A DNA stretch of 64,000 nt from the NCBI GenBank assembly GCA_023957245.1, contig JAMLHJ010000005.1, forward strand, positions 309 through 64,308. The letters are read 5' to 3'. Position 1 is the first letter of the stretch; each line of letters starts with the position of its first letter. Position numbers and translations under genes: made by a program. This DNA comes from Chitinophagales bacterium. GTDB lineage: Bacteria; Bacteroidota; Bacteroidia; Chitinophagales; JADIYW01. The notes under the pieces were generated by a model that was not told where the DNA came from, did not search any database, and saw nothing but the letters and a program-made list of their open reading frames with translations. Shown here one piece after another: positions 5,136-34,080 of this stretch.

Positions 5136-5510
5136 TGTGGAGATTTGAAGATGTTGAAAATTAAAAATTACGAAGTACGAGGTACAAAATACAAAGTACG
5201 AATAAAAAAGCTGGTGGTTAATTGCTTCAAAATTTAACCACAAAGCACACTAAGCTTCTACACAAAGATCACAGAGTTTATTGAAATAATGCGGAGATTT
5301 GAAGATGTTGAAAATTAAAACTCACGAAGTACGAGGTACAAAATACGAAGTACGAATAAAAAAGCTGGAGGTTGATTGCTTCAAAATTTAACCACAAAGC
5401 TCACAGAGTTTCTACACAAAGCTCACAGAGTTTATTGAAATAATGTGGAGATATGAAGATGTTAAATTAAAAAATTACGAAGTACGAGGTACAAAATACG
5501 AAGTACGAAT
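5128..5510. repeat. tandem 154-bp mosaic intergenic repeat, about 2.4 copies
   Basis: Hand alignment gives units starting at 5128/5136, 5282/5290 and 5436/5444. Each unit contains TGGAGATTTGAAGATG, the TACGAAGTACGAGGTACAAAATACGAAGTACGAAT block, the CTGGTGGTT...TTAACCAC hairpin core and a CACAAAG tail. Homology begins inside the last codons of the transporter gene. Confidence 0.9.
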
Positions 5511-5551
5511 ACCAAATTGATGTCCCATGACATCACTCGAATATACCCAAC

Positions 5552-10062: not shown

Positions 10063-10076
10063 GGACTGCAAAGATA
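10063..10076 (-). promoter_or_regulatory. Bacteroidota-type -7 promoter box (TATCTTTG) upstream of rplM
   Basis: The minus strand reads TATCTTTGCAGTCC, which matches the TAnnTTTG consensus, about 40 nt upstream of the rplM ATG. A TTTG lies about 23 nt further upstream. The identical 14-mer recurs upstream of rpmH. Confidence 0.6.
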
Positions 10077-10181
10077 GTATTTATTTATATACCTAGTTGC
10101 AAACTCTTAATTTATTTTTGAAAATAATTATTAACTATTTGATTATCAATGAAATTATCGCACAAAATAATTATAAGTTAT

Positions 10182-10433
10182 GATGGACGATGGACAGTGG
10201 ACGATGGACAATGGGCGATGGACTATGGGCGATGGACGATGGACGATGGACGATGGACGATGGACGATAGACGATGGGCGATGGACGATGGACAATAGAC
10301 TATGGACTATGGACGATGGACAGTGGACGATGGACGATAGACAATGGACGATGGACAATGGACGATGGACGATGGACGATAGACGATAGACAATGGACGA
10401 TGGACAATGGACAATGGACGATGGACGATGGAC
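10182..10433. repeat. heptanucleotide tandem array, 36 units (GATGGAC / AATGGAC and variants)
   Basis: Parsed by hand into 36 consecutive 7-mers with no phase break. Variants are GATGGAC, AATGGAC, AGTGGAC, GATAGAC, AATAGAC, TATGGAC, AATGGGC, GATGGGC and TATGGGC. Confidence 0.97.
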
Positions 10434-10500
10434 GAAGAGACGAAGAGACGAAGAGACGAAGGGAAAATACTGGAGGTTGAGCGCTTCGACTTTATTCAGC
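10434..10500. repeat. mosaic repeat module: (GAAGAGAC)x3 plus conserved core CTGGAGGTTGAGCGCTTCGA
   Basis: An 8-bp repeat in 3 copies directly abuts the heptamer array. It is followed by the same core seen at at least 9 other sites in the window. Confidence 0.8.
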
Positions 10501-10584
10501 AACCGCCTGTCAAAACCAGAAAGAAGATGTGAGAAGTAAAAAAATACCTTATTATAAATCTTTAAATGTTAATATATTAGAGAA

Positions 10585-12435
10585 ATGTTTCGTCGTCCTC
10601 TAGCAATTATTATTGGAGTGGGTTTGATATTGTTGAGTTTTCTACATTATTCAAATGCGCTTACAAATGATTTTTCTTTAGACGATTATTTGTATTTAGC
10701 ACAAGTAAAAAATATCCATCGCTGGTCTGACTTGCAATCTATATTCCAAATCCCTTTTGGGATATCAGATTATCGACCTATAACTACACTTTCATTTGGC
10801 ATTGAAAAATTATTATCTGGAGGGAATATCTACCCTCATATTGCTCACTGGGTCAACCTAATATTATACATTTTATGTAGCTTGAGTCTTTACCGTTTTG
10901 TAAAAAAAATAGCTACTCATCAATATTTACCTCATATAGCTATCATCACTACTATTATTTTCATAACAATACCTCTCCACAACTCCATGATATCCAATAT
11001 AAAATCGAGAGATGGCTTACTCAGTTTTATGTTTGGGATGATTTATTTAAATCTTATTATAGAAGCATTAACATACAAAAGGAATAATCTAGGGAAAATA
11101 ATTCTATCAATTTTGGCAATAGGATTTGTCATATTATCTATCTTTTCTAAAGTTGATGGCTTCAATTTTATATTCATCACGCCATTGCTTTATATCATCT
11201 ACTTTAAAAAGTTCAGTTTAAAATATATTATTAGAACAATCATCATCTTCATACTCCTTACCAAAATCAGCATTAGCATATACTCTAATTGGACAACACA
11301 AAAAGATACGGCTGTAGAAAAATACAATAAAGTTGTACAAAATGATCCTGTTTTATTCACAGAAAACCCTATCGTCAATTATACTTCTTGGGATGATAAA
11401 ATTGCATACTCGATTCTCACCTATTATGAATATACTAAAATGCTCTTACGACCTAATCATCATTACTATTATTATGGTTATGATATGGTTCCTGTATTAA
11501 AAATAAATGACCCAAAAGTAATAGCTGCTGGAATATTTTTGCTCTTACTAATAGTATCTATATTCCTATTTTACAAGAAAAATAAGGTTTATAGTTTCGG
11601 TGTTGCCTTTTATTTAGTTGGACTATTGTATTGTTCCAATTTGATTATCCCTGTTTCTGGTATTGTAGCTGATAGATATGCTTTTATAGCATCTGCTGGT
11701 GCTTGTACTGCAATAGCTGTACTCATCCAAATGGTAATGGTCAAACTAATAACTCTAAAGAAACAGGCTATCCCAATTACTTATAGAAACAAAACAATCA
11801 CTCAAATTCCTACATCTACTATATATCTAATTCCAATATTCTTATTGAGCTCGTTGTTCTATCTACCTGAAAATAGAGAACGGTCAAAAGAATGGGCAAG
11901 TCTTCAAAGTATATTTGAAGCAGATCTTCCTGAAATCACTCATCAGTCTTATGAAGGAAATCTCATTGCAATAAAAAGTTTTATGGCAATGGCACAGAAT
12001 AATGACTCCATCGAAAGTAAGAAATATTATAACAAAGTGCTGTATTATGGAAGTAATGCAAAAAGAATATACCCTGATGGGCAATATGCACAAGACTTAA
12101 TGATTACAGCATATTATGAACTAGGTCAAATGTATGAAGCTATGGAATTGGCTAGGAAGGTGGTAGAAAAATTTGATTCTACTGAAATTGGATGGAGAGT
12201 ACTCAACGAATATTATTATATACAAGAATATAGAGATAGTCTAGAAAATTCATGCAAAAAGGTATTAAGTTTTGCTCCTTTAGATCCTGTAGTCAATATG
12301 ATGTATGTCAGTAATCTCAAATATCTTCATCAAACCAATGTAGCTCAACAATATTTAGATGAACTAGAAAGAAAATATCCTGAAAGTTCAATTCCAGAGG
12401 ATACAAGAAAATATTTGAACTCCAAGCCTGAATGA
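10585..12435 (+). CDS. multi-pass membrane protein, PMT/TMTC-like glycosyltransferase-type N-terminal region with TPR-like C-terminal domain
   Basis: 616 aa with about 10 or more TM segments. The N-terminal pattern (DDYLYL...DYRPITTLSF...HIAHWVNLILYIL) resembles family-39/TMTC-like membrane glycosyltransferases. The soluble C-terminal ~180 aa is helical-repeat-like. The family call is by eye only. Confidence 0.65.
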   Translation: MFRRPLAIIIGVGLILLSFLHYSNALTNDFSLDDYLYLAQVKNIHRWSDLQSIFQIPFGISDYRPITTLSFGIEKLLSGGNIYPHIAHWVNLILYILCSLSLYRFVKKIATHQYLPHIAIITTIIFITIPLHNSMISNIKSRDGLLSFMFGMIYLNLIIEALTYKRNNLGKIILSILAIGFVILSIFSKVDGFNFIFITPLLYIIYFKKFSLKYIIRTIIIFILLTKISISIYSNWTTQKDTAVEKYNKVVQNDPVLFTENPIVNYTSWDDKIAYSILTYYEYTKMLLRPNHHYYYYGYDMVPVLKINDPKVIAAGIFLLLLIVSIFLFYKKNKVYSFGVAFYLVGLLYCSNLIIPVSGIVADRYAFIASAGACTAIAVLIQMVMVKLITLKKQAIPITYRNKTITQIPTSTIYLIPIFLLSSLFYLPENRERSKEWASLQSIFEADLPEITHQSYEGNLIAIKSFMAMAQNNDSIESKKYYNKVLYYGSNAKRIYPDGQYAQDLMITAYYELGQMYEAMELARKVVEKFDSTEIGWRVLNEYYYIQEYRDSLENSCKKVLSFAPLDPVVNMMYVSNLKYLHQTNVAQQYLDELERKYPESSIPEDTRKYLNSKPE

Positions 12436-12551
12436 TTTATGATTTATGAAGACGATGGACGATAGACGATGGACAATGGACGATGGACAATAGACGATGG
12501 ACGATGGACGATGGACAATGGACAATGGACAATGGACGATGGTCGATGGAC
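12434..12551. repeat. heptanucleotide tandem array: 2 GATTTAT units, a 6-nt GAAGAC, then 14 GATGGAC-type units
   Basis: Hand-parsed. The 14 GATGGAC-type units span 12454-12551. The array begins overlapping the TGA stop (12433-12435) of the upstream gene. Confidence 0.95.
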
Positions 12552-12620
12552 AAGTTACATTCTGCCTCTAAAATAATCTAACAACATCACCACATTATCT
12601 AATCTTCACGTCTTCACATT

Positions 12621-12656
12621 AAAAAAGGGTTATCTGAAATCAGACAACCCTTTTTT
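12621..12656. terminator. bidirectional rho-independent terminator candidate
   Basis: AAAAAAGGGTTATCTGA-AA-TCAGACAACCCTTTTTT lies between the convergent 10585-12435 gene and the giant gene. Confidence 0.75.
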
Positions 12657-12676
12657 ATTTTGAATAATGAGAAAAA

Positions 12677-15600
12677 TTATTGTTTCACTACTTTGGCATC
12701 AAATTCTTTTCCGCTTTCGTCTGTGAATGAGATGATATATGTAGCTGCAGGGTAATTGGCTAAGCTCAATTTGACACGGTTGACACCAGTAGCCAAGTCC
12801 ACTTCTTTATTACCCATCACTTTGCCATTCATATCTAAAATGCGAATATTGACATGTTGATTCAATTTAGAATTAATTGTCGCTTCCACAGGGCCATCAG
12901 TAGGATTTGGATGAAGTGCTACAAATCCATCTCCTTTACTAGCTAAGTTCAACTCAATTTGAATGATCTTAGAATAGTGATGAGCACCATCAAAGTCCAC
13001 TTGTTTCAATCTGTAATAATTGATACCATTGAAAGGTTCATTATCCCATAATTGATACTGATGTGGATCTGAAGTAGTACCATGCCCTTTCACAGTGCCA
13101 ATAGATGACCAATTTTTAGCATCATTGCTTTTCTCTACAATGAAGTAATCATTATTCAATTCAGAAGCAGTCTCCCAATTCAACAACACTTTATCTTCTA
13201 TCAATGTACCTGTAAAATGTACCAATGTAATCGGTAGAACATTAATATCTGGACTGACTCGGATAGCTATACCACCTCCAGAGAAACCATCCCATGCTAC
13301 TTCTGCAAAGTGAGTACCCAACATATTACCCACTGCACCATAAGGCAAACTTGACAACAAGTGTCCGACATAAACAAAATTATTGATAGTAGTCGGTTGA
13401 ATATCAGTCGTAGCAGAGTTCACAGGAACACTAAATGCTGTAACTGGACCAGCGACAAATTGTGTATGATCGGTATTTTTGAATACCTGAGCAGGGCCAG
13501 TCGTTAAAGGTAATCCACAAGTCATATTATAAAGTGCTCGCCATGCATTTGCTCTTGCTAAAGTCGCAGCTTCCTCAGCTGGTTTATAGAAAAATCTTGT
13601 TTTTATAAAGCCGTTAGGAGTACCAGATATCACTCTTACATTCCAATATCTCGGCATGACAAAGTTACCCTCGCATGCTGTCAAATCTTGAGCAAAGAAC
13701 ACATCATCCTGAGTAGTAGGGTTAGGAGTCACTGTAATATCCACCTCTGCAGTAAACAAAGCGGTATTGGCACCAGGTACAACGGATGGTGTTTTCTGAA
13801 TAGCAAAAAGATATTCATACGGTGTGGCTGTAGTAGCATACCAAGTCCATCCTGCAGTGTCCACACATACTTCAACAGCTGTAGTCGTTGCATTATCTGG
13901 AGCATAAACAATATAAGCAGGGGATGATGTACACAAACAAGTATCTACGACAGTAACAGATTTAGAAACAGCACTTGTAGTTGAACAAGGTGCTGGAGCT
14001 TCTGCTCTGACGTAATATATGATATTCGTTGCAGGTGAATGTGTAAACACTCCAGTAGTATTAGCAGCTATCTGAGTGCCTCCACTTGTAGGATCACCAT
14101 TATACAATACCCATTGAGCACCAGCACCTAAAGAACCTCCATGTTGCGTAATCGTAATTGCATCTCCTTTACACACCATATCAGGTGCAGTAATAGAATC
14201 TGGTGCAACTGATGGCTCAACAATAGTGACAGTCACAGGTGTAGGAATTGAATTGCCACATCGGTTTTCGATACGAACATAATAAGTAGTTGTCGCAGCA
14301 GGTCTAGGTATCTTAATAGTACGATATGTCATCAAGGTATCTCCCTTGGGAACACCTTTATTGCCGATATAGATAGGGGTATGAGGTCCTAAAGTATCTG
14401 GTCTAGTATCATAGAAATAGAACTTGCCATCATTACCAAGATTTCCTCCCCATACTCTGAGAGATATAGAATCTGGAGCAGATGCATCATTACATATTAA
14501 AGTATCTGAAGCTCGCAAGGAATCTTGCTGTATAAATGGTATCACTGTTACGACTGTTCTTCTCTGCCATCTTGGAGAATAAGTATCTTTACTTGCAGCT
14601 GCTCTAAATGCAGCATCAGTAAAGCAACGACCGACCAGATTGACAAAATAAGTGGTAGTTGTATCTATGATGGTCTGTATCTGCGAGAATGGAGCGCGCT
14701 TTGTAATAATAGTATCACCAGTAATCGAATCAATTGATGCAACCGCTATACTATCTCCTGTGTATGAAGTATAAGTCAAGAAATCAGTAGTGGCTGAACC
14801 TGGGTTTCTGAAACAAGTAGCAGTAGAAATATCTAGCGGGTTGGTACACCTAGAACCAAAGCAAGCGTTAGAAGGACCCAACCTATTATTATAAGGTCCA
14901 CCTTCTAAGCTATACCACGCATACTGCTGCATAAACTTAGCTTTAAAACCATTGATAGAATCAGTCGGCATCTCCAATGTAATCAATGTGCCTGGACATA
15001 CAGTATCAGGAGCTATCATCATACAAGAGCCTTGATAATGCAAATAATCATTCAACCCATTTGTAGCATTACTACACCATGCATTGGTATATGGAACAGG
15101 AACTGCTGCTGCAGTAGCATAACACAATCCCCAAGGAGTTTCCTTATTATAAATCAAAGAATATACTTCATTACTAGTATCTCTACAAACTAGGTCTCCA
15201 GGACTCATTGACACCATACGTCTGAAATAGACAGTTCCTGGATCGGTATTTCCTGGTGTTTGATTAAATACATTCGTAGATGCACTATAAATATTAAATG
15301 CTGTACCTACACCAGGATCCCAACTTTGAGCAACAGCACCAATACCTTGTGGTGCACCAGATGTAGTCGGCCAAGAAGGAGCTACAGTGGTCCATACTCC
15401 ATTCACTTTTATCTGCCATTCATAGAAATAAGTAGTAGGGTCAGAAGGTCCTAATGGAATATTACCATTCATGACACCGATATCCACATTATTCGCAGTA
15501 ACATTTCCTGAATTTCGTAAAGGAGGAGCAATAGAAGCATTACAATCTGCAGCTGGTGGAATAGGAAAATCAATCAAATTATTAGAAAAATTATCTTTCA

Positions 15601-18600
15601 CAATAATCGTTCGGATATTGGAAGTATCAGAACATACCAAAGAAGATGAAGATACTATTCTATAAAAACGATAAGTTCCATTTCCACTGAAAATTGGAGG
15701 AATATACGTTTCATTAACTTCTCCAGACAAAGCCGTAAAGGCTCCTCCATTGGCACTTTGATACCATTGGAATGTCCAATTTCCTCCTGGAACGTGCATA
15801 GGCAATGGGAAAGAAACATGTGACTGAATCGTATCTACTTGTCCGATATTACAGATATAAATGGTATCTGCACTCAATGGGAAAGTATTGATTTCATTAA
15901 CAATTTCAGGATTGACCGTAATGGTGTCATAAATAGGAATAGACCATCCACAACAATTATCTCTTACACGATATCTTACTTGATAATTGACAGGACTTCC
16001 AGTATTATTTAATGGGAGTGTCAATCCTGTAGGATTAGCAACGCCATAAATTTCAATATTTGGAACTGGCGCAGTCTTAACACCACCAACAGGAGCTTTT
16101 TGAATTATCCATTCATGGTCAATCGGATTAGCCATACCAGGTGTAGAGCTCAAAGAAAAAGTAGTTCCAGAACACATGGTATCTGGGACATTAATTGTTG
16201 GTAATGGGCGTTCATATCTGATATACAATTGATTCTGATAAGTACCCCCTGGTATTGTCAACAAATGTTTTGGCCCTAAAAACCCTGTTGGCACATAGAC
16301 ATTTTTGGGACTTGATGTTGGCAAATTTGTAGAAGAAAGATTGTTCGTTATATCATTATAGTTCAATACATTCTGAGGAATCAAGTTACCCCATGAAGTA
16401 GTAGCCTTGCGAATAGTGAGTTTGGAATTAGTACATCCAGATGTATAATCAGATTCTACTCTATCTGAAGGATATGATCCATCAGGCGCATCTTTTGTAA
16501 AAGTTGAAGTAGGACTGATATATTGAGCCATGTTAAAGCCTGCGACTCCTCCAGGAGCACCCATACCACCCGTACCTCCTGTACCTCCTGAACCTCCATC
16601 ACCAGCAACTGTTACCTGACCTGCATAACCCGGATTACCCGCAGCTCCCATACCTCCTAACGGTGCAGCAGAAGTAGATACTAATGGTACAAAATTACGA
16701 TTGGTACCAGAGGAAGTACGACCAATCCATATTCCAAAGGCACCACCACTGCCCCATCCTGGTCTTCCTCCGAATCCACCCAAGCCACCCAAGCCACCAG
16801 CATTGCCAGCGTTTCCTCCGCCGCCGCCGCCGCCGCCACCTGACAGACCATTGAGTAAAGGAATACTTTGACCTTTAGGAAAATAATATTGCATTGGTGT
16901 CAAATCAGATAAAACTAATCCTACATCGACACCAGCAAATCCAATATCGTCACCCGGCACACCGTCATAACCATTTGTATTCACTGCTCCTCCTGTACCT
17001 CTCAAGCCAGGTAATCCCAAAGCAGGATCATTCACAATAGCAGCTCCTCCTGGATTACCAGGAGCTCCATCATTACCTCCTGCTCTATTTCCACACAAAT
17101 TCCCATAGAAAGGAGGAACAGCACAAGGGGCATCTATTCTTACTCCACTAGAGTCTCCATCAGAGCCTATACCTGCCTGTCCAGCAGTAGCAATGACATT
17201 GATGATACGCCATCCAGTAGCACTATCTATATGGATAGCATAATTGCTCAATCCTCTACCTTTGGGATAAGATCCCAAAAGAGCATCTCTAGCAGGAGCA
17301 TCTGTAGTAGTGATATTGACATCTTGAATAATCCAATTGTTTCCGATAGATCTAAATCCAATTCTATGGATACGATTATCATCAATACGCTCTATAATAT
17401 TACTTGTGATATTGGTAACCGCATCTGAACGTTTGACCCAAATATTTTCACCTAAGTCCGCATCCCACTCTTCCACATATCCTCCTTCCGCTACGAGGCT
17501 ATCTCTCATGACCAATGCACGATTGCCTGATAAGGTATAACTTCCCGCTAATATCTTGATATGTCTTATGGTATTACTTGGAGCAGCTGTCACCATATTG
17601 AAAGCTTCTTCCAAGGTATAAGGTCTGCTGATAGTACCAATTCCTGTTCCTGGCACAGCCAAGTGAGATGCATATAACACTCCTGTCACCCCTGAGCAAC
17701 CAGGGTCTTCTGTCTGGAAGTAACATGTAGTGGAATAATTGGTAGCTGATGGACAGATATCTGTTACGACTGTAGTCATCGTCACAGAAACTGTTGTCGG
17801 TGAAGTATTTGGGAAAGAAAGTGTTGTTTTCCAAGGAGAGCCTCCTGGAACAGCAGGAGATACCGTACCTCCAGTAGATGCCCATGTATATCTTATCCCT
17901 GGAATAGGTGTTGATCCAGGAGCAGGAGGAAGTACCGGTTGCAATTCAATAGAAGCACCCGCTCTCACTTTAGTTGGACTTCCAGCTGTACCACATGCTA
18001 GCACACCTGCATCTATAGGGACAATAATACTATCTAATACCGTGATACGTGTACATTGTGTAAATGCTTCAGCAAATTTATCACCATTGGGCGTTTTACT
18101 ACCATCTCCATTTCTATTGAATACTTTGAGACGATATACTCTTGTTCCGTTAAAAGTTCCAGTATTGAATCCAGTGGGGCAGACACCTCCCTGAGCAGCA
18201 GGGACATCTATCCAAGTTGTTCCTGCTGGTGGACAAGCTGGACCAGCTGGTGTATTGACTTCAGCATATTGCCACTGGTAGAAAGTAGAATTTAGGGAGC
18301 CTGTCACACTCATTGTATGAGTAGCACCTGGACAAATGATGACATCTCTAGGTCCATCAACAGTACCAGCGATAGGTTTGGCTATCTCCCATCTATATCT
18401 CAAACGAGCGAGATGGCTTTGCATTCTATTACCAGACAATCTAATCGGTACATAAATATAATTATCTGTAAATGGAGGACTATTTCTCCAATTGATAGTA
18501 CCATTGGCAGTAGCATAATTATCATTGTCACTTGCGCTAATCTTTGCCAATTCATTCAAAGGCCAAATAGGCCACACACAGAATCCGCCCAACCAGCTTG

Positions 18601-20197
18601 GCGCATGAGTATCACAACAATCACTACCGGATCCAATCAAACAAGAAACACAACTATTTGTAGGTGCATCTGTACCACAATCACTCTCCCAAGATTCTAT
18701 TCTATAACTGAAAGTATTGGCATTGGTGTTAGCTCCAGTAAAAGTTCTATTCAATAATAGCGTATTGGTATTAACCCAAGCTGGATCGTCCTGCGAGGTT
18801 TTTACTGTAGGAGCATATCCTGGTTCAGCAGTGAACTGGTTGTCCCATGCTTTGGCTCTTATGTATTTCTCGTCATCTTTTGTTACTGCTTGAGGACCTA
18901 AAGGCACATCATTACAATCTTGTGAAATGAATCCAAAGACATCACCCAAAACTGAAATATTAAGACCATCATGGTCAGAGTCCATAAAATGTCCATCAAG
19001 CCATACTTGGAGTTTGATGCCATTCATATCATCGTAAGTGGTGTCACAAAGTTGAGCTTGATTCTTTACTGTGTTGGAGTTAGGTTCTTTGAAGCCTGAT
19101 TGTGCTCCCGTCCAGCTCCATCGATGTGCAAAGACAAGGATATAACCTTCGTTGTCGATACTATTCCAGATACTTCCATCTCTATTATCTGAAACTACAA
19201 TTTTTTGAGAGGTAAAATATCCCACTTCCCCTGGAGGTGTTCCTCTGAAAAATGCAGGGTCAGTTATAAAACTTATCTTTGAAGCATAGGAGTCATCATA
19301 ATCGGAAATACCTACTGCGGAAGCAATGATATTCACAATATTCAATGGGTCAAGCTCCCATCCAAAAAAGTTTATACAAGCTCCTAAACCAGCTCCCCAT
19401 GCCAATCCTGTCACCCCCATTGAGTCCACAATAAGTGATGTCATGATGATATCATAAGGGAAAATAGCCTTTTTACCTTCATAATATTGAGGAAGTCCGA
19501 AGGTGGTTTTACAACCGACTCCTCCGATATTCATCACCGCTTCAGAGCCTGAAATATCTGCATCAGACTCATAAGCATCCACTAACTGAAATTGATATCT
19601 ATCAGGAGCTTTGCCACCAGAAAAGGTAGCATCATAAAGCAAATAGCCTAAAGTACCTGGAGTATTCACTCCTACTGGCCTAGCATATCCATCGACTGTT
19701 TGAGGATATGGATTAGGAGCAATATCAGAAACATTTTTAGCCATAAAAACACTTCCTGGAAAAATTGGTAGAGTGGCTTTGGGAAAAGTTGATTCTCTAA
19801 ATGGAAAGAAAGGGTTCTGCATTCTAAACTTTGAATCATTTACTTTCCAAAAGTGTTGATTATTTTTATCTTTTATGGTGAACCGCATATCCTGCGCAAA
19901 AAAGTTGTTCAAAATATTGAACTGCGGGAATCTATCCATAACAAAGCCAGAGCCATTTGCTGCCCGGATACGCAATTTATTAAATTGAAACTTGGTAGGG
20001 CCAGTGATGACGTTCTCACTACAGTTGGCATCCGAATAGACGGCATGCAACCATACTTCCAGTCGCATATCTGCATCATTAAACACTTCGTTTTGTGCAA
20101 AAGTGTTCTTGCTCCAAAGGACTAATGTTAATATTAATATTAGTTTTGAAATATTGCTCAGAATACTGGGGAAACTGTTGAGTATATTTTTTTTCAT
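12677..20197 (-). CDS. giant (2506 aa) T9SS-secreted cell-surface protein, adhesin-like, Cys-rich Ig-like repeats, central Gly-rich block, C-terminal T9SS sorting domain
   Basis: - N-terminal signal peptide ending in ...NTFAQNE.
- C-terminal ~80 aa (FVALHPNPTDGPVEATINS...IRILDMNGKVMG...ATYIISF...) match the T9SS type-A sorting-domain pattern.
- The preceding segment (LLNWETASELNNDYFIVEKSNDAKNW...YYRLKQVDFDG) is common in Bacteroidota secreted proteins.
- All antisense ORFs in the track are shorter and compositionally implausible. Confidence 0.9.
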   Translation of the reverse strand: MKKNILNSFPSILSNISKLILILTLVLWSKNTFAQNEVFNDADMRLEVWLHAVYSDANCSENVITGPTKFQFNKLRIRAANGSGFVMDRFPQFNILNNFFAQDMRFTIKDKNNQHFWKVNDSKFRMQNPFFPFRESTFPKATLPIFPGSVFMAKNVSDIAPNPYPQTVDGYARPVGVNTPGTLGYLLYDATFSGGKAPDRYQFQLVDAYESDADISGSEAVMNIGGVGCKTTFGLPQYYEGKKAIFPYDIIMTSLIVDSMGVTGLAWGAGLGACINFFGWELDPLNIVNIIASAVGISDYDDSYASKISFITDPAFFRGTPPGEVGYFTSQKIVVSDNRDGSIWNSIDNEGYILVFAHRWSWTGAQSGFKEPNSNTVKNQAQLCDTTYDDMNGIKLQVWLDGHFMDSDHDGLNISVLGDVFGFISQDCNDVPLGPQAVTKDDEKYIRAKAWDNQFTAEPGYAPTVKTSQDDPAWVNTNTLLLNRTFTGANTNANTFSYRIESWESDCGTDAPTNSCVSCLIGSGSDCCDTHAPSWLGGFCVWPIWPLNELAKISASDNDNYATANGTINWRNSPPFTDNYIYVPIRLSGNRMQSHLARLRYRWEIAKPIAGTVDGPRDVIICPGATHTMSVTGSLNSTFYQWQYAEVNTPAGPACPPAGTTWIDVPAAQGGVCPTGFNTGTFNGTRVYRLKVFNRNGDGSKTPNGDKFAEAFTQCTRITVLDSIIVPIDAGVLACGTAGSPTKVRAGASIELQPVLPPAPGSTPIPGIRYTWASTGGTVSPAVPGGSPWKTTLSFPNTSPTTVSVTMTTVVTDICPSATNYSTTCYFQTEDPGCSGVTGVLYASHLAVPGTGIGTISRPYTLEEAFNMVTAAPSNTIRHIKILAGSYTLSGNRALVMRDSLVAEGGYVEEWDADLGENIWVKRSDAVTNITSNIIERIDDNRIHRIGFRSIGNNWIIQDVNITTTDAPARDALLGSYPKGRGLSNYAIHIDSATGWRIINVIATAGQAGIGSDGDSSGVRIDAPCAVPPFYGNLCGNRAGGNDGAPGNPGGAAIVNDPALGLPGLRGTGGAVNTNGYDGVPGDDIGFAGVDVGLVLSDLTPMQYYFPKGQSIPLLNGLSGGGGGGGGGNAGNAGGLGGLGGFGGRPGWGSGGAFGIWIGRTSSGTNRNFVPLVSTSAAPLGGMGAAGNPGYAGQVTVAGDGGSGGTGGTGGMGAPGGVAGFNMAQYISPTSTFTKDAPDGSYPSDRVESDYTSGCTNSKLTIRKATTSWGNLIPQNVLNYNDITNNLSSTNLPTSSPKNVYVPTGFLGPKHLLTIPGGTYQNQLYIRYERPLPTINVPDTMCSGTTFSLSSTPGMANPIDHEWIIQKAPVGGVKTAPVPNIEIYGVANPTGLTLPLNNTGSPVNYQVRYRVRDNCCGWSIPIYDTITVNPEIVNEINTFPLSADTIYICNIGQVDTIQSHVSFPLPMHVPGGNWTFQWYQSANGGAFTALSGEVNETYIPPIFSGNGTYRFYRIVSSSSLVCSDTSNIRTIIVKDNFSNNLIDFPIPPAADCNASIAPPLRNSGNVTANNVDIGVMNGNIPLGPSDPTTYFYEWQIKVNGVWTTVAPSWPTTSGAPQGIGAVAQSWDPGVGTAFNIYSASTNVFNQTPGNTDPGTVYFRRMVSMSPGDLVCRDTSNEVYSLIYNKETPWGLCYATAAAVPVPYTNAWCSNATNGLNDYLHYQGSCMMIAPDTVCPGTLITLEMPTDSINGFKAKFMQQYAWYSLEGGPYNNRLGPSNACFGSRCTNPLDISTATCFRNPGSATTDFLTYTSYTGDSIAVASIDSITGDTIITKRAPFSQIQTIIDTTTTYFVNLVGRCFTDAAFRAAASKDTYSPRWQRRTVVTVIPFIQQDSLRASDTLICNDASAPDSISLRVWGGNLGNDGKFYFYDTRPDTLGPHTPIYIGNKGVPKGDTLMTYRTIKIPRPAATTTYYVRIENRCGNSIPTPVTVTIVEPSVAPDSITAPDMVCKGDAITITQHGGSLGAGAQWVLYNGDPTSGGTQIAANTTGVFTHSPATNIIYYVRAEAPAPCSTTSAVSKSVTVVDTCLCTSSPAYIVYAPDNATTTAVEVCVDTAGWTWYATTATPYEYLFAIQKTPSVVPGANTALFTAEVDITVTPNPTTQDDVFFAQDLTACEGNFVMPRYWNVRVISGTPNGFIKTRFFYKPAEEAATLARANAWRALYNMTCGLPLTTGPAQVFKNTDHTQFVAGPVTAFSVPVNSATTDIQPTTINNFVYVGHLLSSLPYGAVGNMLGTHFAEVAWDGFSGGGIAIRVSPDINVLPITLVHFTGTLIEDKVLLNWETASELNNDYFIVEKSNDAKNWSSIGTVKGHGTTSDPHQYQLWDNEPFNGINYYRLKQVDFDGAHHYSKIIQIELNLASKGDGFVALHPNPTDGPVEATINSKLNQHVNIRILDMNGKVMGNKEVDLATGVNRVKLSLANYPAATYIISFTDESGKEFDAKVVKQ

Positions 20198-20316
20198 AAG
20201 CCTCTATATTATATTGTCAAATTACCAAATCTTAAATATCATTACCAAATTGACAATTATCCCAAAGTTAAATAAATATTTCCAAATGTGTAATGTTTTA
20301 ACAAAAAAAAGAAAAA

Positions 20317-20638
20317 GAGGGACAATGGACGATGGACAATGGACGATGGACGATGGACAATGGACAATGGACGATGGACAATGGACGATGGATGATGGAT
20401 GATGGACGATGGACGATGGACGATGGACAATGGACGATGGACAATGGACGATGGACGATGGACGATGGACAATGGACGATGGACAATGGACAATGGACAA
20501 TAGACGATGGACGATGGACAATAGACGATGGACAATGGACGATGGACGATGGACAATGGACGATGGACGATGGACGATGGACGATGGACGATGGACAATG
20601 GACGATGGACGATGGACGATGGATGATGGATGATTTAC
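20317..20638. repeat. heptanucleotide tandem array, 46 units (GATGGAC / AATGGAC)
   Basis: Parsed by hand into 46 consecutive 7-mers, including the degenerate first unit GAGGGAC and last unit GATTTAC, with no phase break. It starts 119 bp upstream of the giant gene's start codon. Confidence 0.97.
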
Positions 20639-20880
20639 GAAGTTAGAAGTTAGAAGTACGAATGAAAAATGCTGGTGGTTGAGTGCTTCGAAACTAACTG
20701 CAAAGGAGAGTGAAAATTAACCACAAAGCACACAAAGTCTCTACACAAAGAACACGAAGTTTAATGAAGTAATATGGAGATATGGAGATTTGGAAATGTG
20801 AAGATGTGAAGATGTGAAGATGTGAAAATACTGGTGGTTGAGTGCTTCGAAGCCAACTGCAAAGGAGGGTGAAAATTAAC
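20639..20880. repeat. two consecutive mosaic repeat modules (STR block + CTGGTGGTTGAGTGCTTCGAA core + AACCACAAAGCACACAAAG...CTACACAAAG tail)
   Basis: The first module is preceded by (AGAAGTT)x2-TACGAAT. The second is preceded by (GTGAAGAT)x3. The cores start at 20672 and 20831. Confidence 0.9.
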
Positions 20881-21138
20881 CACAAAGCACACAAAGGTTC
20901 TACACAAAGTTCACGAAGTGATAGACATAACTACACGTTGCGAATGCACCATGCACCATAGATTCTGATGCTGGGCACCCACTATACGAAGAAAGCGTAA
21001 TTTCTTCAACTGTTTGAGATGGAGTCGAGTTTTGAAGAAATAGCTTTCAAGTATTTAGTGGGTCAGCGAAAAATCCGGTGCTGGTCACTGAGTTTGTCGA
21101 AGTGCTTTTGCATACTTTTTCTTCTAAAGAAAAGTATG
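20881..21138 (+). repeat. repeat element A (~260 bp), copy 1; potentially structured
   Basis: About 90% or more identical by eye to the reverse complement of 33592-33858. It contains a 7-bp closing stem (CCCACTA 20978-20984 / TAGTGGG 21056-21062), a 7-bp hairpin (GAAGAAA-GCGTAA-TTTCTTC, 20988-21007) and a hairpin CATACTTTT...AAAAGTATG. Confidence 0.85.
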
Positions 21139-21149
21139 ATAGGAAAATA

Positions 21150-21315
21150 AAATGTGAAAATGTTGGTGGTTGAGGTTCTCGATTTAACCACAAAGCACAC
21201 AAAGTTATTCCACAAAGAAGCACTGAGTTTCACAAAGAATTTGTGTGGTGAAATGTGAGAGGTGAAATGTAAGATGAAAAATGTGAGATGTGAGATGTGA
21301 GATGTGAGATGAGCA
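21150..21315. repeat. mosaic repeat module with core TTGGTGGTTGAGGTTCTCGATTTAACCAC and (GTGAGAT)x4
   Basis: Core at 21163. The 7-bp GTGAGAT repeat in 4 copies spans 21283-21310. Confidence 0.85.
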
Positions 21316-21339
21316 TCTTTATATTTGATTCAGCAGAAC

Positions 21340-21371
21340 AAAAAAAGGCTACCTTAAATTAGATAGCCTTT
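21340..21371 (-). terminator. rho-independent terminator downstream of the acyl-CoA synthetase pair
   Basis: On the minus strand, AAAGGCTATC-loop-GGTAGCCTTT is followed by a T-run. It lies 25 bp after the stop of the 21397-23157 gene. Confidence 0.7.
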
Positions 21372-21396
21372 CTTAATATTTTGAAAAGTTCAGTAC

Positions 21397-23157
21397 TTAT
21401 TCGCCATAGATTTCTGCAATCTCGCGAGCGTATTTTTCTGTAATTACTTTACGTTTGATTTTCATGGTAGGCGTCAATTCCTTAGTATCTACCGTCCATT
21501 CGTTGGCAAGTAATTTGAATTTTTTGATTTGCTCAATATGGTTGAAATTAGGATTGGTTTCTTTAACAATATCCTCATACAATTTCACAACTTGATCATT
21601 TTTAATAAGTTCCTCATTGTTTTTAAATGACACCCCTTTTTCTTTTGCCCAGTCGTGAAGTGCTTGATAAGCAGGAACAATCAATGCAGAAACAAATTTT
21701 TTACCTTCACCCACGACCATGATTTGCTCGACAAAGAAAGATTCTCTAAATAGACTTTCTATAGGTGCTGGAGCTACATACTTTCCTCCAGAAGTTTTAA
21801 GAAGTTCTTTTTTACGGTCAGTTATTTTCAAAAATTTATTCCCATTAGCTCCTGTGAGGAATGTACCTACGTCACCTGTATGGAACCAATCTCCGCTCAT
21901 GACTTCTGCTGTCTTGTCTGGAGCTTTGTAATAACCCATCATGATATTAGGACCTTTTGCTAAGATTTCTCCATCTTCAGCAATTTTTACTTCTACTCTA
22001 TCAATAGGCATACCTACAGTTCCCAACATAGATCCACCTTCAGTAAATCTATTGAAAGTAACTACTGGAGAAGTTTCTGTCAATCCATAACCTTCTCTGA
22101 TAGGCACTCCTGCTGCTGAGAACACTCTTGCAATCTTCAATGGACATGCAGCAGAACCTGTTACGATACCTACTACTCTTCCACCTAATGCTTCACGCCA
22201 TTTGCTGAAAATCAATTTATCAGCAATCTTCATTTGCAAGCCTGGTTTTTGGTCGTATTGATAATCATCAGTCAATGAAAGTGCCCAGAAAAATAATTTC
22301 TTTTTCAGGCCTTTTAATTCCAATCCTTTATTGACGATTTTCTCATATACTTTCTCCAATAATCTAGGTACAGTAGTAAAGAAATGTGGGCGAACTGTTT
22401 GTAATTTTTCTCCCAATGTATCAATGTCAGAATAATATACATTCACACCATTATAAAGGTAGGTGTAGATAACCATACGTTCAAAGATATGACATAGCGG
22501 CAAAAAGCTTAAAGAGATTTGTCCTGCTTCGATAGGCAATTCTTTAGAAACTGCTAATAGATTGGAGACAATATTCTCATGTGATAACATTACGCCTTTT
22601 GGAAGTCCTGTAGTTCCAGAAGTATAAATAATAGTAGCTAAATCTTTTGCTTGGATTTTTTCTGCTCTTTCTTTGATAAGATTGATATCGCCATTTTCTC
22701 CAGCTTTGATGACTTCTGTCCAATTATTAGCAGAAGCAACTTCTTCCCAAGTATATACATTAGTCAATGTAGCTACTCTATCTTTGGCTGCCATTACCTT
22801 TCTGTATAATCCTTCATCAGAAACGATACAGATTTTGGCTTCAGCATGATTTAAAATATACTCATATTCGCTAGGGCTGATAGTAGGATATAAAGGAACA
22901 TTGATAGCTCCAATTTGGCTGATAGCGATATCGCAGATATTCCATTCTGGTCTGTTTGCAGTAGTTACTACAGCGATTTTGTCTCCTGGTTGGATGCCCA
23001 ATGAAATAAGTCCAAGGCTAAGTTTATTGGATAACTCAATAACTTCAGCCGTGCTGTATTTTACCCATTGTCCATTTTTTATCCCAGCTAAACATACTTC
23101 TTGAGGCTTGTTTTGTGCCTGATACTGGATTACGTCAAATAATCTTGAAACATTCAT
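21397..23157 (-). CDS. long-chain fatty acid--CoA ligase (AMP-dependent synthetase/ligase)
   Basis: 586 aa. AMP-binding motif IIYTSGTTGLPKGVMLSHENI, GYGLTETSP and TGDVG...ITDRKKELLKTSGGKYVAP are typical of FadD-like bacterial ACSL enzymes. Confidence 0.88.
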   Translation of the reverse strand: MNVSRLFDVIQYQAQNKPQEVCLAGIKNGQWVKYSTAEVIELSNKLSLGLISLGIQPGDKIAVVTTANRPEWNICDIAISQIGAINVPLYPTISPSEYEYILNHAEAKICIVSDEGLYRKVMAAKDRVATLTNVYTWEEVASANNWTEVIKAGENGDINLIKERAEKIQAKDLATIIYTSGTTGLPKGVMLSHENIVSNLLAVSKELPIEAGQISLSFLPLCHIFERMVIYTYLYNGVNVYYSDIDTLGEKLQTVRPHFFTTVPRLLEKVYEKIVNKGLELKGLKKKLFFWALSLTDDYQYDQKPGLQMKIADKLIFSKWREALGGRVVGIVTGSAACPLKIARVFSAAGVPIREGYGLTETSPVVTFNRFTEGGSMLGTVGMPIDRVEVKIAEDGEILAKGPNIMMGYYKAPDKTAEVMSGDWFHTGDVGTFLTGANGNKFLKITDRKKELLKTSGGKYVAPAPIESLFRESFFVEQIMVVGEGKKFVSALIVPAYQALHDWAKEKGVSFKNNEELIKNDQVVKLYEDIVKETNPNFNHIEQIKKFKLLANEWTVDTKELTPTMKIKRKVITEKYAREIAEIYGE

Positions 23158-23162
23158 TTGTA

Positions 23163-24935
23163 TTAGATATTTTCTTTGTTGTTGTAAAACGAATTTATGA
23201 TTGATTTGTATTTATTATTAATATACTTTCGCTTGGTTTTCATTGTCGCAGTCAATTCTCCTCCTTCTATAGTCCATTCATTTTCTAGCAAAGCTATTCT
23301 TTTTATTTGTTCTACTTTAGAGAAATGGATATTCATTTGTTGTACAATATTAAAAAAATAATTATTAACTTCCTTTGATTCTATCATTTCCTTTTTAGAA
23401 TATAATGAAAGATGATTTTCTTGACACCATTTTTCTAAAAAGTCAAAATTAGGAACAATTAATGCAGAAACAAATTTTTCGCCATCTCCAACTACTACAA
23501 TTTGCTCAATATAAGGAGATTCTTTCATTTTATTTTCTAAAACAGCAGGTGCAACGTATTTTCCTCCAGAAGTTTTAAAAAGTTCTTTTTTTCTATCTGT
23601 AATGACTAGGTATTGTTCGTCAGTAAAATATCCAATATCTCCTGTTTTCAGCCAGCCATCATCAGTAAATGATGCTTGGGTATTCTCTTTATCTTTATAA
23701 TATCCTTGCATGACATTGGGGGCATTCACTAATATTTCACCATCTTCAGCAAACTTTATATGTACAGATGGTAATGTAACTCCTACAGAACCGGGTCTTA
23801 CTCCATATTTTTTCAATGGATTGACAGTTAACACAGGAGAGGTTTCGGTTAAGCCATAGCCTTCTATCAATGGGATCTGTGCATTGTTAAATATTTGTGC
23901 CATTCTAGCCTGTAAAGGTGCAGAACCACAAATGATAGCTTTGATTTGACCACCTAAGGCTTCTCTCCATTTTTTAAACACCAATTTATCAGCAATTTGC
24001 AATTGGATTTTACTCCAAAGACTTGCACTTCCGTCTATAGGAGTCTTTTCTGCTAAGCGAAGTGCCCAAATAAATATCTTCTTTTTGAAAGGAGGAAGAC
24101 CTCTTGCTTTGCGCAATATTCCTTCATATATTTTTTCTATCAATCGAGGCACAGTGGCAAAATATTGCACTCGAACATCTACTATATTTTGGGCGATTGA
24201 TTCCAGTCCATCAGCAAAATAAATAGGAGAGCAACTGTACATATAAGTATAATTCAATATGCGCTCAAATACATGGCAAAGTGGCAAAAAACTTAAAGCT
24301 TTTTCTTCAAATTGGGTTTGAACTACCTGCACACAATCTTTGACATTGCTCATGATATTATAGTGACTGAGCATGACACCTTTAGGTTGTCCTGTAGTGC
24401 CTGATGTATATATAATAGTGGCAGTATCGGTTTCTTTTATCTCAGATTTTAACTTGTATAACTCATTCAGTTCACTATCTTTCAACAACTCTTTCCAATG
24501 TTTTATTCCTTCAATATTATCAAATGAATAAACGCCTTTTATTTGAGGCAGATTAGAGATGACTGGATTTAATTTTCTGGCTAGCAATCTATCAGAAATA
24601 AAGACATATTGTATTTCGGCATGTTGGAAAATGTATTCATATTCTCCAGCACTAATAGTCGGATAAATGGGGACATTGATAAGGCCTATTTGAAGAGTAG
24701 CTATATCTGTAATATGCCATTCAGGACGATTAGTCGAGGAAATAATTGCAATTTTATCTCCTTTTTTTAGACCCAATTCAAGTAAGCCTACTGACAATTG
24801 ATGGGATAAATCAATGATTTGCTGCGTACTGTATTTTGTCCATGACTTTTTATCTTCCCTTCTTGCAAAAGTATCTTCCAATGCATGCGTACTCAATTGG
24901 TGTTCGAGGATATCAAATATTCGGGAAGAGTTCAA
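23163..24935 (-). CDS. long-chain fatty acid--CoA ligase, tandem paralog
   Basis: 590 aa with the same motif set (IIYTSGTTGQPKGVMLSHYNI, GYGLTETSP, ITDRKKELFKTSGGKYVAP). Only 5 bp separate it from the downstream paralog. Confidence 0.88.
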   Translation of the reverse strand: MNSSRIFDILEHQLSTHALEDTFARREDKKSWTKYSTQQIIDLSHQLSVGLLELGLKKGDKIAIISSTNRPEWHITDIATLQIGLINVPIYPTISAGEYEYIFQHAEIQYVFISDRLLARKLNPVISNLPQIKGVYSFDNIEGIKHWKELLKDSELNELYKLKSEIKETDTATIIYTSGTTGQPKGVMLSHYNIMSNVKDCVQVVQTQFEEKALSFLPLCHVFERILNYTYMYSCSPIYFADGLESIAQNIVDVRVQYFATVPRLIEKIYEGILRKARGLPPFKKKIFIWALRLAEKTPIDGSASLWSKIQLQIADKLVFKKWREALGGQIKAIICGSAPLQARMAQIFNNAQIPLIEGYGLTETSPVLTVNPLKKYGVRPGSVGVTLPSVHIKFAEDGEILVNAPNVMQGYYKDKENTQASFTDDGWLKTGDIGYFTDEQYLVITDRKKELFKTSGGKYVAPAVLENKMKESPYIEQIVVVGDGEKFVSALIVPNFDFLEKWCQENHLSLYSKKEMIESKEVNNYFFNIVQQMNIHFSKVEQIKRIALLENEWTIEGGELTATMKTKRKYINNKYKSIINSFYNNKENI

Positions 24936-24983
24936 GTCTCTATTTATTTATAAGGCTCAATATAAAGAAAAGTTTGCAAAATA

Positions 24984-25161
24984 GATTTATGAGGTATGAT
25001 TTATGAAGTACGAAGTTAGAAGTTAGAAGTACGAATGGAAAATTCTGGTGCTTGAGTGCTTCAAAATTTAACCACAAAGCACACTAAGCTTCTACACAAA
25101 GTTCACGGAGTTTATTGAAGTAATGTGGAGATGTGAAGATGTGAAGATGTGAGATAAAAAT
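24984..25161. repeat. mosaic repeat module (GATTTAT / AGAAGTT STRs, core CTGGTGCTTGAGTGCTTCAAAATTTAACCAC, CACAAAG tail, (GTGAAGAT)x2)
   Basis: Near-identical to the modules at 20632-20760 and 27715-27790, by hand alignment. Confidence 0.85.
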
Positions 25162-25354
25162 GCTGATGATTGAATTTGCCTCGTAGAGGCTACCACTTGG
25201 TAATAATAAATAAATAACCAACTATTGCTCCGTAGGAGCTACCCTAAATAATAATGTCGTCAAATTATACCACAAAGATTCACAAAGAAGAACGAAGTTT
25301 CTCAAAGAATTGCTTTGTGTCTTTTGTGCCTTCTTAGTGTTTTTTGTGTAATAG
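25162..25354 (+). repeat. repeat element B (~190 bp), copy 1
   Basis: Its reverse complement aligns with 33339-33509. Shared strings include GGCAAATTCAATCATCAGC, GGTAGCCTCTACGAGG, GGGTAGCTCCTACGGAGCAATAGTTGG and CAAAGCAATTCTTTGAGAAACTTCGTTCTTCTTTGTGAA. Confidence 0.85.
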
Positions 25355-27683: not shown

Positions 27684-27699
27684 AATTAAGTAGTACGAG

Positions 27700-34005: not shown

Positions 34006-34080
34006 TTTCCTCTAGGTTTCGAGAAGCTAAGTGACCCTAGTTATGATGGGTAAAAAACAATATTTCGGGATATTGATATG

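Follow-up and report, generated by a model that had tools for sequence, protein, structure and literature searches.

The window analysed here is a stretch of 64,000 nucleotides from a Chitinophagales bacterium (Bacteroidota; GenBank assembly GCA_023957245.1, contig JAMLHJ010000005.1). It contains three tandem arrays of a heptanucleotide, GATGGAC or AATGGAC (together RATGGAC), all of them intergenic and in the same orientation (Table 1). Array 1 lies in the 556-bp divergent gap between rplM (start at 10028, - strand) and a gene for a TPR/PMT-like membrane protein, array 2 follows that gene, and arrays 2 and 3 stand on the two sides of a giant gene with a C-terminal sorting domain of the type IX secretion system (T9SS). 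An earlier reading of the same DNA, hereafter the original prediction, had taken this gene for a T9SS adhesin and the two arrays that bracket it for a possible means of varying its expression. The analysis described below leads to another view: the arrays are probably long simple-sequence repeats (LSSRs) that grew by slippage, seeded in the heads of a lineage-specific mosaic repeat and at the stop codon of a gene.

Anatomy of the arrays

A unit-by-unit parse gave 36, 14 and 46 heptamers for arrays 1 to 3, 96 in total. Tandem Repeats Finder, at period 7, reported 36.3 copies with 85% matches at 10182-10435, 14.4 copies at 12451-12551 and 45.0 copies at 20320-20634, in each case with 0% indels; the matches ranged from 85 to 90% over the three arrays. 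The unit counts, the common + orientation and the absence of indels that had been predicted were borne out. Taken together, the arrays comprise 51 GATGGAC, 22 AATGGAC, 5 GATAGAC, 4 AATAGAC and 4 GATGGAT units, a few AGTGGAC, TATGGAC, GATGGGC and GATGGTC, and also GAGGGAC and GATTTAC; the last four variants extend the list of minor variants given previously, which was otherwise confirmed. A pattern of two units, RATGGACRATGGAC, matched 56 times, on the + strand only, and was not found in 100 dinucleotide-preserving shuffles of the window. A unit within the range of 1-11 nt (here a period of 7) repeated head to tail in 14-46 copies, over a length beyond chance, corresponds to the description of heptanucleotide LSSRs.

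The arrays had been called phase-perfect. No indel interrupts them, but the property is partly definitional because an array ends where its phase breaks. Similarly, the GATTTAT leader of array 2 does overlap the stop codon of the membrane-protein gene, as had been noticed, but it is joined to the array through a 6-nt GAAGAC and hence lies one base out of phase. The GATTTAT heptamer is also present in the repeat heads at 24984 and 27718. A third property, the lack of stop codons in all six frames, is true of the consensus units alone; GATAGAC, AATAGAC and GATGGAT-GAT bring stops, and each array contains 1-6 of them on the + strand. We did not retain six-frame stop-freeness as a special property, which is shared by 28 of the 60 unit classes of the same composition and is lost in the real arrays.

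The arrays give rise to spurious open reading frames (ORFs) of 100-115 amino acids (MDDGRWT... type) at 20332-20646 (+), 20257-20598 (-) and 10155-10502 (-), which gene callers may annotate. For the first, the only one checked, no identical product was found in a public collection. The A-first units also produce sigma-70-like matches (TGGACA-17 nt-GACAAT) at 10317-10415 and 20333-20557 (+). Since Bacteroidota promoters are of the TTTG/TAnnTTTG type, we set these matches aside as a by-product of the repeat; they are probably irrelevant in Bacteroidota and could matter for phyla with a canonical promoter. Clustered regularly interspaced short palindromic repeats, iterons and coding repeats were dropped in view of the lack of spacers, the 7-nt period and the intergenic location.

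Probable growth of the arrays by single-unit duplication

Relative to GATGGAC, the units carry 47 transitions and 7 transversions. Rare variants stand beside an identical copy four times, as against 0.75 expected in unit shuffles (P=0.004), and the adjacent pairs are TATGGAC-TATGGAC, GATAGAC-GATAGAC and, twice, GATGGAT-GATGGAT. Identical rare units side by side are the footprint of single-unit duplication. They suggest, indirectly, that whole units have been gained and lost by slippage, as in other LSSRs. The 3' end of array 3 grades from GATGGAC to GATGGAT, GATTTAC and finally GAAGTTA, a gradient that would be the expected product of mutation followed by expansion. The order of G-first and A-first units in the arrays was indistinguishable from that in shuffles.

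No word of six or more units is common to any of the three arrays, which indicates that they evolved separately and are not recent copies of one another. This comparison also bears on the proposal that arrays 2 and 3 form a recombination cassette, in which the two would recombine as direct repeats and selection would act on the resulting loss or amplification of the whole giant gene. The two arrays are in direct orientation, 7.8 kb apart, and the longest exact run that they have in common is 34 bp, about the minimum length for RecA-dependent exchange, so that an exchange would be physically possible. However, the common exact tracts are short and interrupted, any dispersed repeat pair gives the same opportunity, and no common unit order remains as the trace of a past exchange. 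We consider this explanation extremely unlikely.

The arrays are part of a mosaic repeat landscape

Short tandem repeats are widespread in this part of the genome. In the window, whose GC content is 35%, Tandem Repeats Finder detected about 14 arrays of 7-8 nt units distributed over seven intergenic gaps. The other units include TACGAAG, GAAGTTA, GTGAGAT, AGAAGTA, ATGTGAAG, ATGTGGAG and GACGAAGA, and the genes beside the array-bearing gaps encode a POT transporter, ribosomal protein L13, the TPR membrane protein, two AMP-binding enzymes, an FKBP isomerase, an S9 peptidase and a helicase. No feature of the neighbouring genes singles out the surface protein. The role specific to the adhesin that had been put forward is weakened by the presence of the same unit at rplM and at the membrane-protein gene, and by the other 7-8 nt arrays that lie beside unrelated genes in five further gaps.

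Arrays 1 and 3 are physically connected with a dispersed mosaic element. This element has a unit of about 154-159 bp, tandemly repeated 2.5 times at 5128-5511 and twice at 20666-20919, and it is assembled from an octamer head, a heptamer head, the sequence AAAAT-GCTGGTGGTTGAGTGCTTCGA, for which a GGTGGTT/AACCAC hairpin is predicted, and three CACAAAG motifs set at intervals. In the window, AAAAT-GCTGGTGGTTGAGTGCTTCGA occurs in seven copies on the + strand, and the series TTAACCACAAAGCACACAAAG..CTACACAAAG..CACGAAGTTT in six copies on the + strand and one on the - strand; the module CTGGTGGTTGAGTGCTTCGA lies downstream of arrays at seven sites. Further copies of the mosaic are found at 25030-25125 and on the - strand at 33808-34010, with partial ones at 10455-10500 and 27750-27790.

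The junction on the right-hand side of array 3 reads GATTTAC GAAGTTA GAAGTTA GAAGTAC GAATGAAAAATGCTGGTGG... and recurs at 24975-25066 (77% identity) and 27695-27786 (84%), where GATTTAT, GAGGTAT or AAGAAGT units take the place of GATGGAC. After array 1, an octamer array is followed by the same mosaic module as after array 3. These shared junctions, and the module downstream of both arrays, indicate that arrays 1 and 3 are greatly expanded repeat heads of the dispersed mosaic element. Array 2 is a solo array, and it opens with the GATTTAT units known from the mosaic heads.

Several other properties of these elements were recorded. The module hairpin GGTGGTT...AACCAC was considered as an RNA gene and rejected, as it is predicted in some copies with z-scores of -2.1 to +0.6. 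Rfam 15 gave no match at the gathering score in the whole window, and at 20100-21450 two sub-threshold terminator-like matches were the only ones. A search for the mosaic module CTGGWGGTTGAGYGCTTCRA in metagenome contigs of the Joint Genome Institute returned 48 matches, all by chance in high-GC coding DNA and none with the flanking context. An element of 227 nt, present in two copies with 95% identity amid mosaic modules (20924-21150, +; 33581-33807, -), folds into a long imperfect palindrome and a second hairpin (minimum free energy of -68.6 kcal/mol, z of -4.2) and has the look of a miniature inverted-repeat transposable element. A module of 128 nt is likewise found twice, with 92% identity (25145-25272, +; 33399-33526, -). 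Its hairpins GCCTC-GTA-GAGGC and GCTCC-GTA-GGAGC differ by a compensatory change, and the GTAG in each recalls elements of the type of repetitive extragenic palindromes (REP) and REP-associated tyrosine transposases (RAYT). No transposase accompanies the 128-nt module or the mosaic elements in the window. The octamer GCTGGTGG, which is the Chi sequence of E. coli, is present in the conserved module at 5210-5217, 20671-20678 and 20830-20837, probably by coincidence because other copies read GCTGGAGG or TCTGGTGC.

Neighbouring genes, promoters and terminators

The giant gene initiates at the ATG at 20197, 119 bp from the start of array 3, and its stop codon lies 125 bp from the end of array 2; both distances had been given correctly, and the name of giant T9SS surface protein is fair given the Ig_7 and Por_Secre_tail domains. 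The Bacteroidetes -7 motif TAnnTTTG has 16 intergenic sites in the window, several of them 5-73 nt before gene starts, and these include the putative boxes of rplM and of the giant gene (Table 1). If the match that lies on the + strand of the divergent gap is used, array 1 would sit in a leader of about 470 nt of the membrane-protein gene.

Array 2 begins 18 nt past the stop codon of the membrane-protein gene, or 0 nt if the leader is counted, and ends before a hairpin which is likely to be a bidirectional intrinsic terminator between the convergent genes. Since it is located between stop codon and terminator hairpin, array 2 belongs to the 3' untranslated region (UTR). At the other end of the giant gene, nothing but further repeat DNA is found beyond array 3 up to a second hairpin, likely the intrinsic terminator of the upstream AMP-binding gene, so that the mosaic and array 3 would lie between that terminator and the giant-gene promoter. 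The AMP-binding (acyl-CoA ligase-like) genes are tandem paralogues (21397-23157 and 23163-24935, both -), with 72-76% DNA identity in blocks.

Table 1. Arrays, genes and signals of the locus (positions in the window)
Feature	Position	Strand	Description
Predicted -7 box TATCTTTG of rplM	10069..10076	-	Bacteroidetes-type motif; 48 nt upstream of start
TAnnTTTG match TATTTTTG	10113..10120	+	Motif match
Array 1	10182..10433	+	36 units: 19 GATGGAC, 5 AATGGAC, 12 variants
Octamer array GACGAAGA x3.9	10431..10461	+	Directly after array 1
Conserved module head AAAATACTGGAGGTTGAGCGCTTCGA	10464..10489	+	One of 7 + strand copies in the window, up to 3 mismatches
TPR/PMT-like membrane-protein gene	10585..12435	+	616 aa; arrays 1 and 2 on its flanks
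GATTTAT x2 leader of array 2	12434..12447	+	Overlaps TGA stop 12433-12435
Array 2	12454..12551	+	14 units; 3' UTR of membrane-protein gene
Hairpin GGGTTATCTGAAATCAGACAACCC	12621..12656 (stem 12627-12650)		A-run and T-run on flanks; read by eye, uncalled by scan tool; likely bidirectional terminator
Giant gene	12677..20197	-	2506-aa ORF; Ig_7 domain and T9SS C-terminal sorting domain (Por_Secre_tail)
Predicted -7 box TAACTTTG of giant gene	20263..20270	-	73 nt upstream of ATG
Array 3	20317..20638	+	46 units: 25 GATGGAC, 13 AATGGAC, 4 GATGGAT, 2 AATAGAC, GAGGGAC, GATTTAC
GAAGTTA/GAAGTAC heptamers, then mosaic module GCTGGTGGTTGAGTGCTTCGA ... TTAACCACAAAGCACACAAAG ... CACGAAGT	20639..20760	+	Junction with array 3
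Octamer array (ATGTGAAG-type) and second module copy	20771..20919	+	92% identical to first copy; 159-bp spacing
GTGAGAT heptamer array	21248..21311	+	9 copies; far end of the 1.2-kb gap holding array 3
Hairpin GGCTA/TAGCC, then U-run	21340..21372	-	Read as terminator of AMP-binding gene 21397..23157 (-)

Array 3 starts 46 nt beyond the predicted -7 box of the giant gene, past a T-rich tract, and thus occupies positions from about -59 and farther. As the whole array is upstream of the box, the number of its units cannot alter the spacing of the predicted core promoter. This position bears on the main idea of the original prediction, phase or expression variation of the surface protein. In this model array 3 is a contingency locus, where gain or loss of units would change expression of the giant gene by moving an activator or UP-like site, located upstream, with respect to the promoter. 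The slippage signature described above is present, and the array begins some 46-47 nt upstream of the predicted -7 box, beside the T-rich tract. There is also precedent for repeat tracts upstream of the -35 element that modulate expression, such as the TAAA repeat of Neisseria nadA. Nevertheless, with respect to the predicted promoter, array 3 is located neither between the promoter elements nor in the leader nor in the ORF. Each 7-bp step would rotate the upstream DNA by about 240 degrees, and only repeat and mosaic DNA lies there to be rotated. The same unit accompanies rplM and the membrane-protein gene, and it also lies in the 3' UTR of the latter. Finally, the neighbours of such arrays in other phyla are housekeeping genes, and the heptamers described in the literature have no link with surface genes (PMC4692102). 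Hence the part of the proposal that concerned unit slippage stands, while the part that concerned promoter geometry does not, and a contingency function appears quite unlikely.

Placement of RATGGAC arrays in other phyla

A scan of one genome per species for four or more RATGGAC units yielded at least 119 stretches in at least 10 phyla. The groups, lengths and counts given in this section are those among the matches listed. Bacteroidota are represented by Prevotellaceae, Bacteroidaceae, Paludibacteraceae, Saprospiraceae, Pedobacter, Cnuella and Leadbetterella, and the remainder by Chloroflexota, Acidobacteriota, Lentisphaeria, Bacillota, Chlorobiota/Ignavibacteriota, Cyanobacteriota, Planctomycetota, Gemmatimonadota, Armatimonadota, Patescibacteria and others. 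Other metagenome-assembled genomes (MAGs) of Bacteroidota, from Prevotellaceae, Bacteroidaceae and Bacteroidia, contain arrays with 24, 28 and 40 units. RATGGAC is accompanied by many other heptamers, a period of 7 being that of 286 of the approximately 500 tandem repeats in the scanned loci.

The placement of the arrays was counted over 144 RATGGAC arrays, taken from the window and the scanned loci; 123 of them do not look like coding sequence. Of these 123, 43 have an ORF of 150 codons or more in the same orientation whose end falls within -14 to +40 nt of the array start, while the mirror-image arrangement was seen in only 6 (binomial p=6e-8). The same count with arrays defined by Tandem Repeats Finder gave 57 versus 7, and other purine-rich heptamers gave 46 sense versus 14. 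The stop-adjacent ORFs are real genes in 42 cases, with 68 Pfam families that include TGT, PanB, RuvX, Dus and alcohol dehydrogenases, and they are mostly housekeeping; no excess of surface proteins was found among these 42 ORFs of other phyla. The association of the unit with surface-protein genes that had been envisaged is therefore not found in the scanned loci and the window, the neighbours in other phyla being diverse housekeeping genes. Many stop-adjacent arrays open with a TAG-containing variant unit which supplies the stop codon itself. Array 2 shows this arrangement, as it lies on the strand of the membrane-protein gene and starts at its stop codon.

The unit itself does not appear to be privileged. 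In viral contigs, 14 stretches matched (RATGGAC)4; four control heptamers of equal composition, likewise free of stops, matched 8, 2, 2 and 7. The difference amounts at most to a modest excess and was measured on viral contigs only. As the controls are of similar order, we do not claim that RATGGAC is special, and the idea of a privileged heptamer was given up. Variants are found at every position of the unit, in the window as well as across phyla, which means that the unit has no invariant core.

Three peculiar configurations were noticed among the scanned loci. In seven loci from Chloroflexia and Caldilineaceae MAGs, (GATGGAC)n is followed within a few bases by (GTCCATC)n, and these inverted-complement pairs form long perfect hairpins just after genes. 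Four other loci carry (GATGGAC)n-(GAGGACT)n composites with a conserved tail, an architecture parallel to the mosaic of the window. In a Bacteroidia MAG (CAXPEB010000047.1; locus L089, 1635-1914), an array of 40 units begins 7 nt past the stop codon of a homocysteine S-methyltransferase-like gene and has a superperiod of three units, GATGGAC AATAGAC CATGGAC.

The sense-strand bias led us to weigh an explanation at the level of transcription polarity or RNA, in which the arrays are tolerated or selected in one orientation. The sense transcript (GAUGGAC)n is G-rich and C-poor and would be harmless past a stop codon, whereas the antisense transcript (GUCCAUC)n is C-rich, G-poor and unstructured, and could load Rho and so halt convergent or read-through transcription. 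Array 2 would then protect the membrane-protein gene against antisense transcripts that run out of the giant gene, and array 3 would insulate the giant-gene promoter from read-through of the AMP-binding gene. Besides the orientation bias, which extends to the other purine-rich heptamers, the predicted folding is in line with this model: for antisense RNA from array 3 the folding energy is -0.8 kcal/mol (z of +2.25), with 37% C and 13% G, an unstructured, low-G and C-rich composition as expected of a Rho-loading site, and the sense RNA forms only a weak hairpin that slips in register, its centroid structure being open. Furthermore, arrays 2 and 3 face with their C-rich strand the - strand transcripts that pass the two putative terminators, and most heptamer repeats of Xanthomonas are transcribed (PMC4692102). 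However, intrinsic terminators are already in place at both sites, array 1 does not fit because there is nothing obvious to insulate there, and the bias could equally reflect a general purine loading of transcribed strands. We judge this explanation unlikely for the present arrays. In its broadest form, RATGGAC-type or purine-rich heptamer arrays would be a functional element common to several phyla, sense modules that start at the stop codon and act either as antisense Rho-loading insulators or as sense RNA read by a conserved single-strand-binding protein, and the 46-unit array would set by its length the shielding of the giant T9SS promoter. We hold that form to be quite unlikely.

The same data bear on a different model, also raised in the original prediction, in which the arrays are a platform for cooperative DNA binding: a repeat-reading protein, such as an omega-like repressor or a nucleoid-associated protein, would coat an array and silence or organize the locus. 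The strict 7-bp phase over up to 322 bp and the presence of three arrays in the same orientation within 10.5 kb would suit such a protein. There is a precedent for protein polymers on contiguous heptads: on plasmid pSM19035, adjoining heptads of 7 bp are bound by the omega repressor. However, the known omega operators contain 7-10 heptads, far fewer than the 14-46 units here, and no candidate binder is encoded next to the arrays in the window. In addition, the variants at every unit position, the occurrence of the unit in at least 10 phyla, which would require a shared binder, and the bias for the sense strand after stop codons, which points to transcription and not to binding of duplex DNA, speak against the model. 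We regard it as highly unlikely.

Relatives of the locus

The membrane protein has its best homologues in Chitinophagales MAGs, at 49% identity. The loci of these homologues are non-syntenic and contain no tandem heptamers in the 22 kb inspected for each. The closest relatives found are thus without arrays, which argues that the expansion is lineage-specific. Exact look-ups of other proteins of the window, made for a comparison of strains, gave no matches.

Discussion

The slippage signature, the shared junctions and the distribution of the repeats in the window are consistent with the following scenario. In a divergent Chitinophagales-like bacterium, the intergenic regions would have been colonized by a family of mosaic repeats. 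Arrays 1 and 3 would be over-expanded versions of the short 7-8 nt repeat heads that precede the conserved mosaic module, and array 2 a solo array that spans the 3' UTR of the membrane-protein gene from stop codon to terminator, the commonest placement in other phyla. Growth would have proceeded by slipped-strand mispairing, whole units being gained or lost in non-coding DNA. The giant gene has arrays on both sides because the consecutive intergenic gaps of this 30-kb stretch all carry such repeats, and the view that the bracketing arrays are a dedicated control device of that gene is not supported. As array 3 is upstream of the predicted core promoter, gains or losses of its units by slippage would not turn the giant gene on and off. 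The number of units probably differs between strains, and we infer that the arrays are selectively near-neutral at this locus. The contingency, binding-platform and recombination models are much less likely and lack positive support.

Several observations weigh against the scenario of neutral growth by slippage. The arrays contain no indel of 1-6 nt over 672 bp, as compared with 54 substitutions, which is mildly surprising for pure drift, the surprise being partly explained by the way in which array ends are defined. The -7 box of the giant gene is a motif match and not a mapped transcription start. The sequences of essentially the same strain, four short Logan contigs of Illumina type around rpsI from four read sets with 99.8-100% identity, all end before the arrays and do not bear on variability in length or on neutrality. 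The strong sense-strand bias past stop codons across phyla speaks against full neutrality of such arrays wherever transcription runs through them. Array 1 is situated between divergent genes, a configuration which is under-represented for the heptamers of Xanthomonas and Nostoc (PMC4692102). The array-bearing gaps are all at 5-34 kb, and none of the eight gaps of at least 150 bp at 37-58 kb has an array, a regional clustering for which the scenario does not account; the contrast was drawn post hoc.

In many bacteria, no other long simple repeats are as over-represented as heptanucleotide arrays, and the question of their role dates back to the papers on short tandemly repeated repetitive (STRR) sequences. 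The window adds one of the longest examples, with 46 units, in a little-known lineage of Bacteroidota, and the location of arrays in the expandable head of a mosaic element suggests how such arrays get seeded. With the check across phyla, the published regularity of stop-codon placement with a purine-rich sense strand now covers a third unit and 10 or more phyla. We consider this rule of stop codon and sense strand to be the lead most worth testing. For annotation, it should be kept in mind that the arrays break short-read assemblies and generate spurious ORFs, and they should not be read as phase-variation switches of an adhesin unless the promoter has been mapped.

Comparison with known systems

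Contingency loci of Neisseria, Haemophilus and Moraxella resemble array 3 in having a slippage-prone tandem repeat beside a surface-protein gene. Their repeats, with units of 1-5 nt, occupy the ORF itself, the leader or the interval from -35 to -10. Array 3 has 7-nt units, is separated by 46 nt from the predicted -7 box downstream of it and by 119 nt from the ATG, and has sister arrays beside housekeeping genes. In the window, rplM and metabolic genes are among the neighbours, and those in other phyla are mostly housekeeping.

The bacterial interspersed mosaic elements (BIMEs) and REP sequences of E. coli and the pneumococcal BOX elements, with their variable number of boxB, are dispersed modular intergenic elements, often located 3' of genes. 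The mosaic of the window is similar in combining a few conserved modules with a part of variable copy number in intergenic DNA. It differs in that the modules have no sequence similarity to those elements, the variable part is a microsatellite of 7-8 nt and not a 45-nt box, and no cognate transposase was seen.

The analogy with the STRR sequences of heterocystous cyanobacteria, made in the original prediction, holds insofar as the arrays behave like heptanucleotide LSSRs. Both consist of tandem heptanucleotides scattered through non-coding DNA, each genome having several unit types, and neither has a known function. The STRR units are CCCCAGT, TTGGTCA and CAACAGT. The arrays described here are outside that family, with a GATGGAC/AATGGAC unit, Chitinophagales homologues of the flanking gene and a T9SS domain, in another phylum.

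A close parallel is provided by the heptamer repeats GGGAATC of Xanthomonas and GGGGAYT of Nostoc described by Rehm et al. 2015, which fall within the LSSRs of Mrazek et al. 2007 (PMC4692102). Those repeats are overwhelmingly intergenic, are placed at stop codons on the coding strand, are scarcer than expected between divergent genes and lie beside genes of all functional classes with no link to surface genes. Their length differs strongly among close relatives, their proposed origin is polymerase slippage, and no function has been found for them (PMC4692102). Array 2 fits their downstream placement on the coding strand. Array 3 is, like theirs, on the upstream non-coding strand, but at 119 bp instead of in their class of 0-50 bp. 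Other differences concern the unit, the length and the host. G-tracts able to form G-quadruplexes belong to the description of the Xanthomonas and Nostoc repeats, whereas GATGGAC contains only GG and no run of three or more G, so that a G-quadruplex is not expected. Their repeats favour about 4 units as compared with 14-46 here, and in the present case the host is a Chitinophagales-like member of the Bacteroidota, with arrays 1 and 3 lying within a mosaic repeat element.

The opinion that Bacteroidota have no equivalent was refuted by published data as well as by the RATGGAC arrays of 24-40 units found in the MAGs. In Beggiatoaceae, Cyanobacteria and five Bacteroidetes, MacGregor 2015 described arrays of TAACTGA and of heptamers that accompany it (PMC4679880). 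Arrays of up to 43 copies occur in Bacteroidetes, with Gramella forsetii and Aequorivita sublithincola as hosts, and the intergenic regions of Elizabethkingia anophelis are assemblages of several different heptamers (PMC4679880). The unit is different from ours, and the repeats of Beggiatoaceae, present in 2-6 copies just upstream of start codons in a manner that suggests translational control, have a placement not seen here. In other respects the two agree: in both cases close relatives lack arrays, contigs break within arrays and several heptamers are assembled in the same intergenic regions. Heptamer arrays in Bacteroidetes and their placement at stop codons are thus already known, and the locus described here presents another unit in another lineage.

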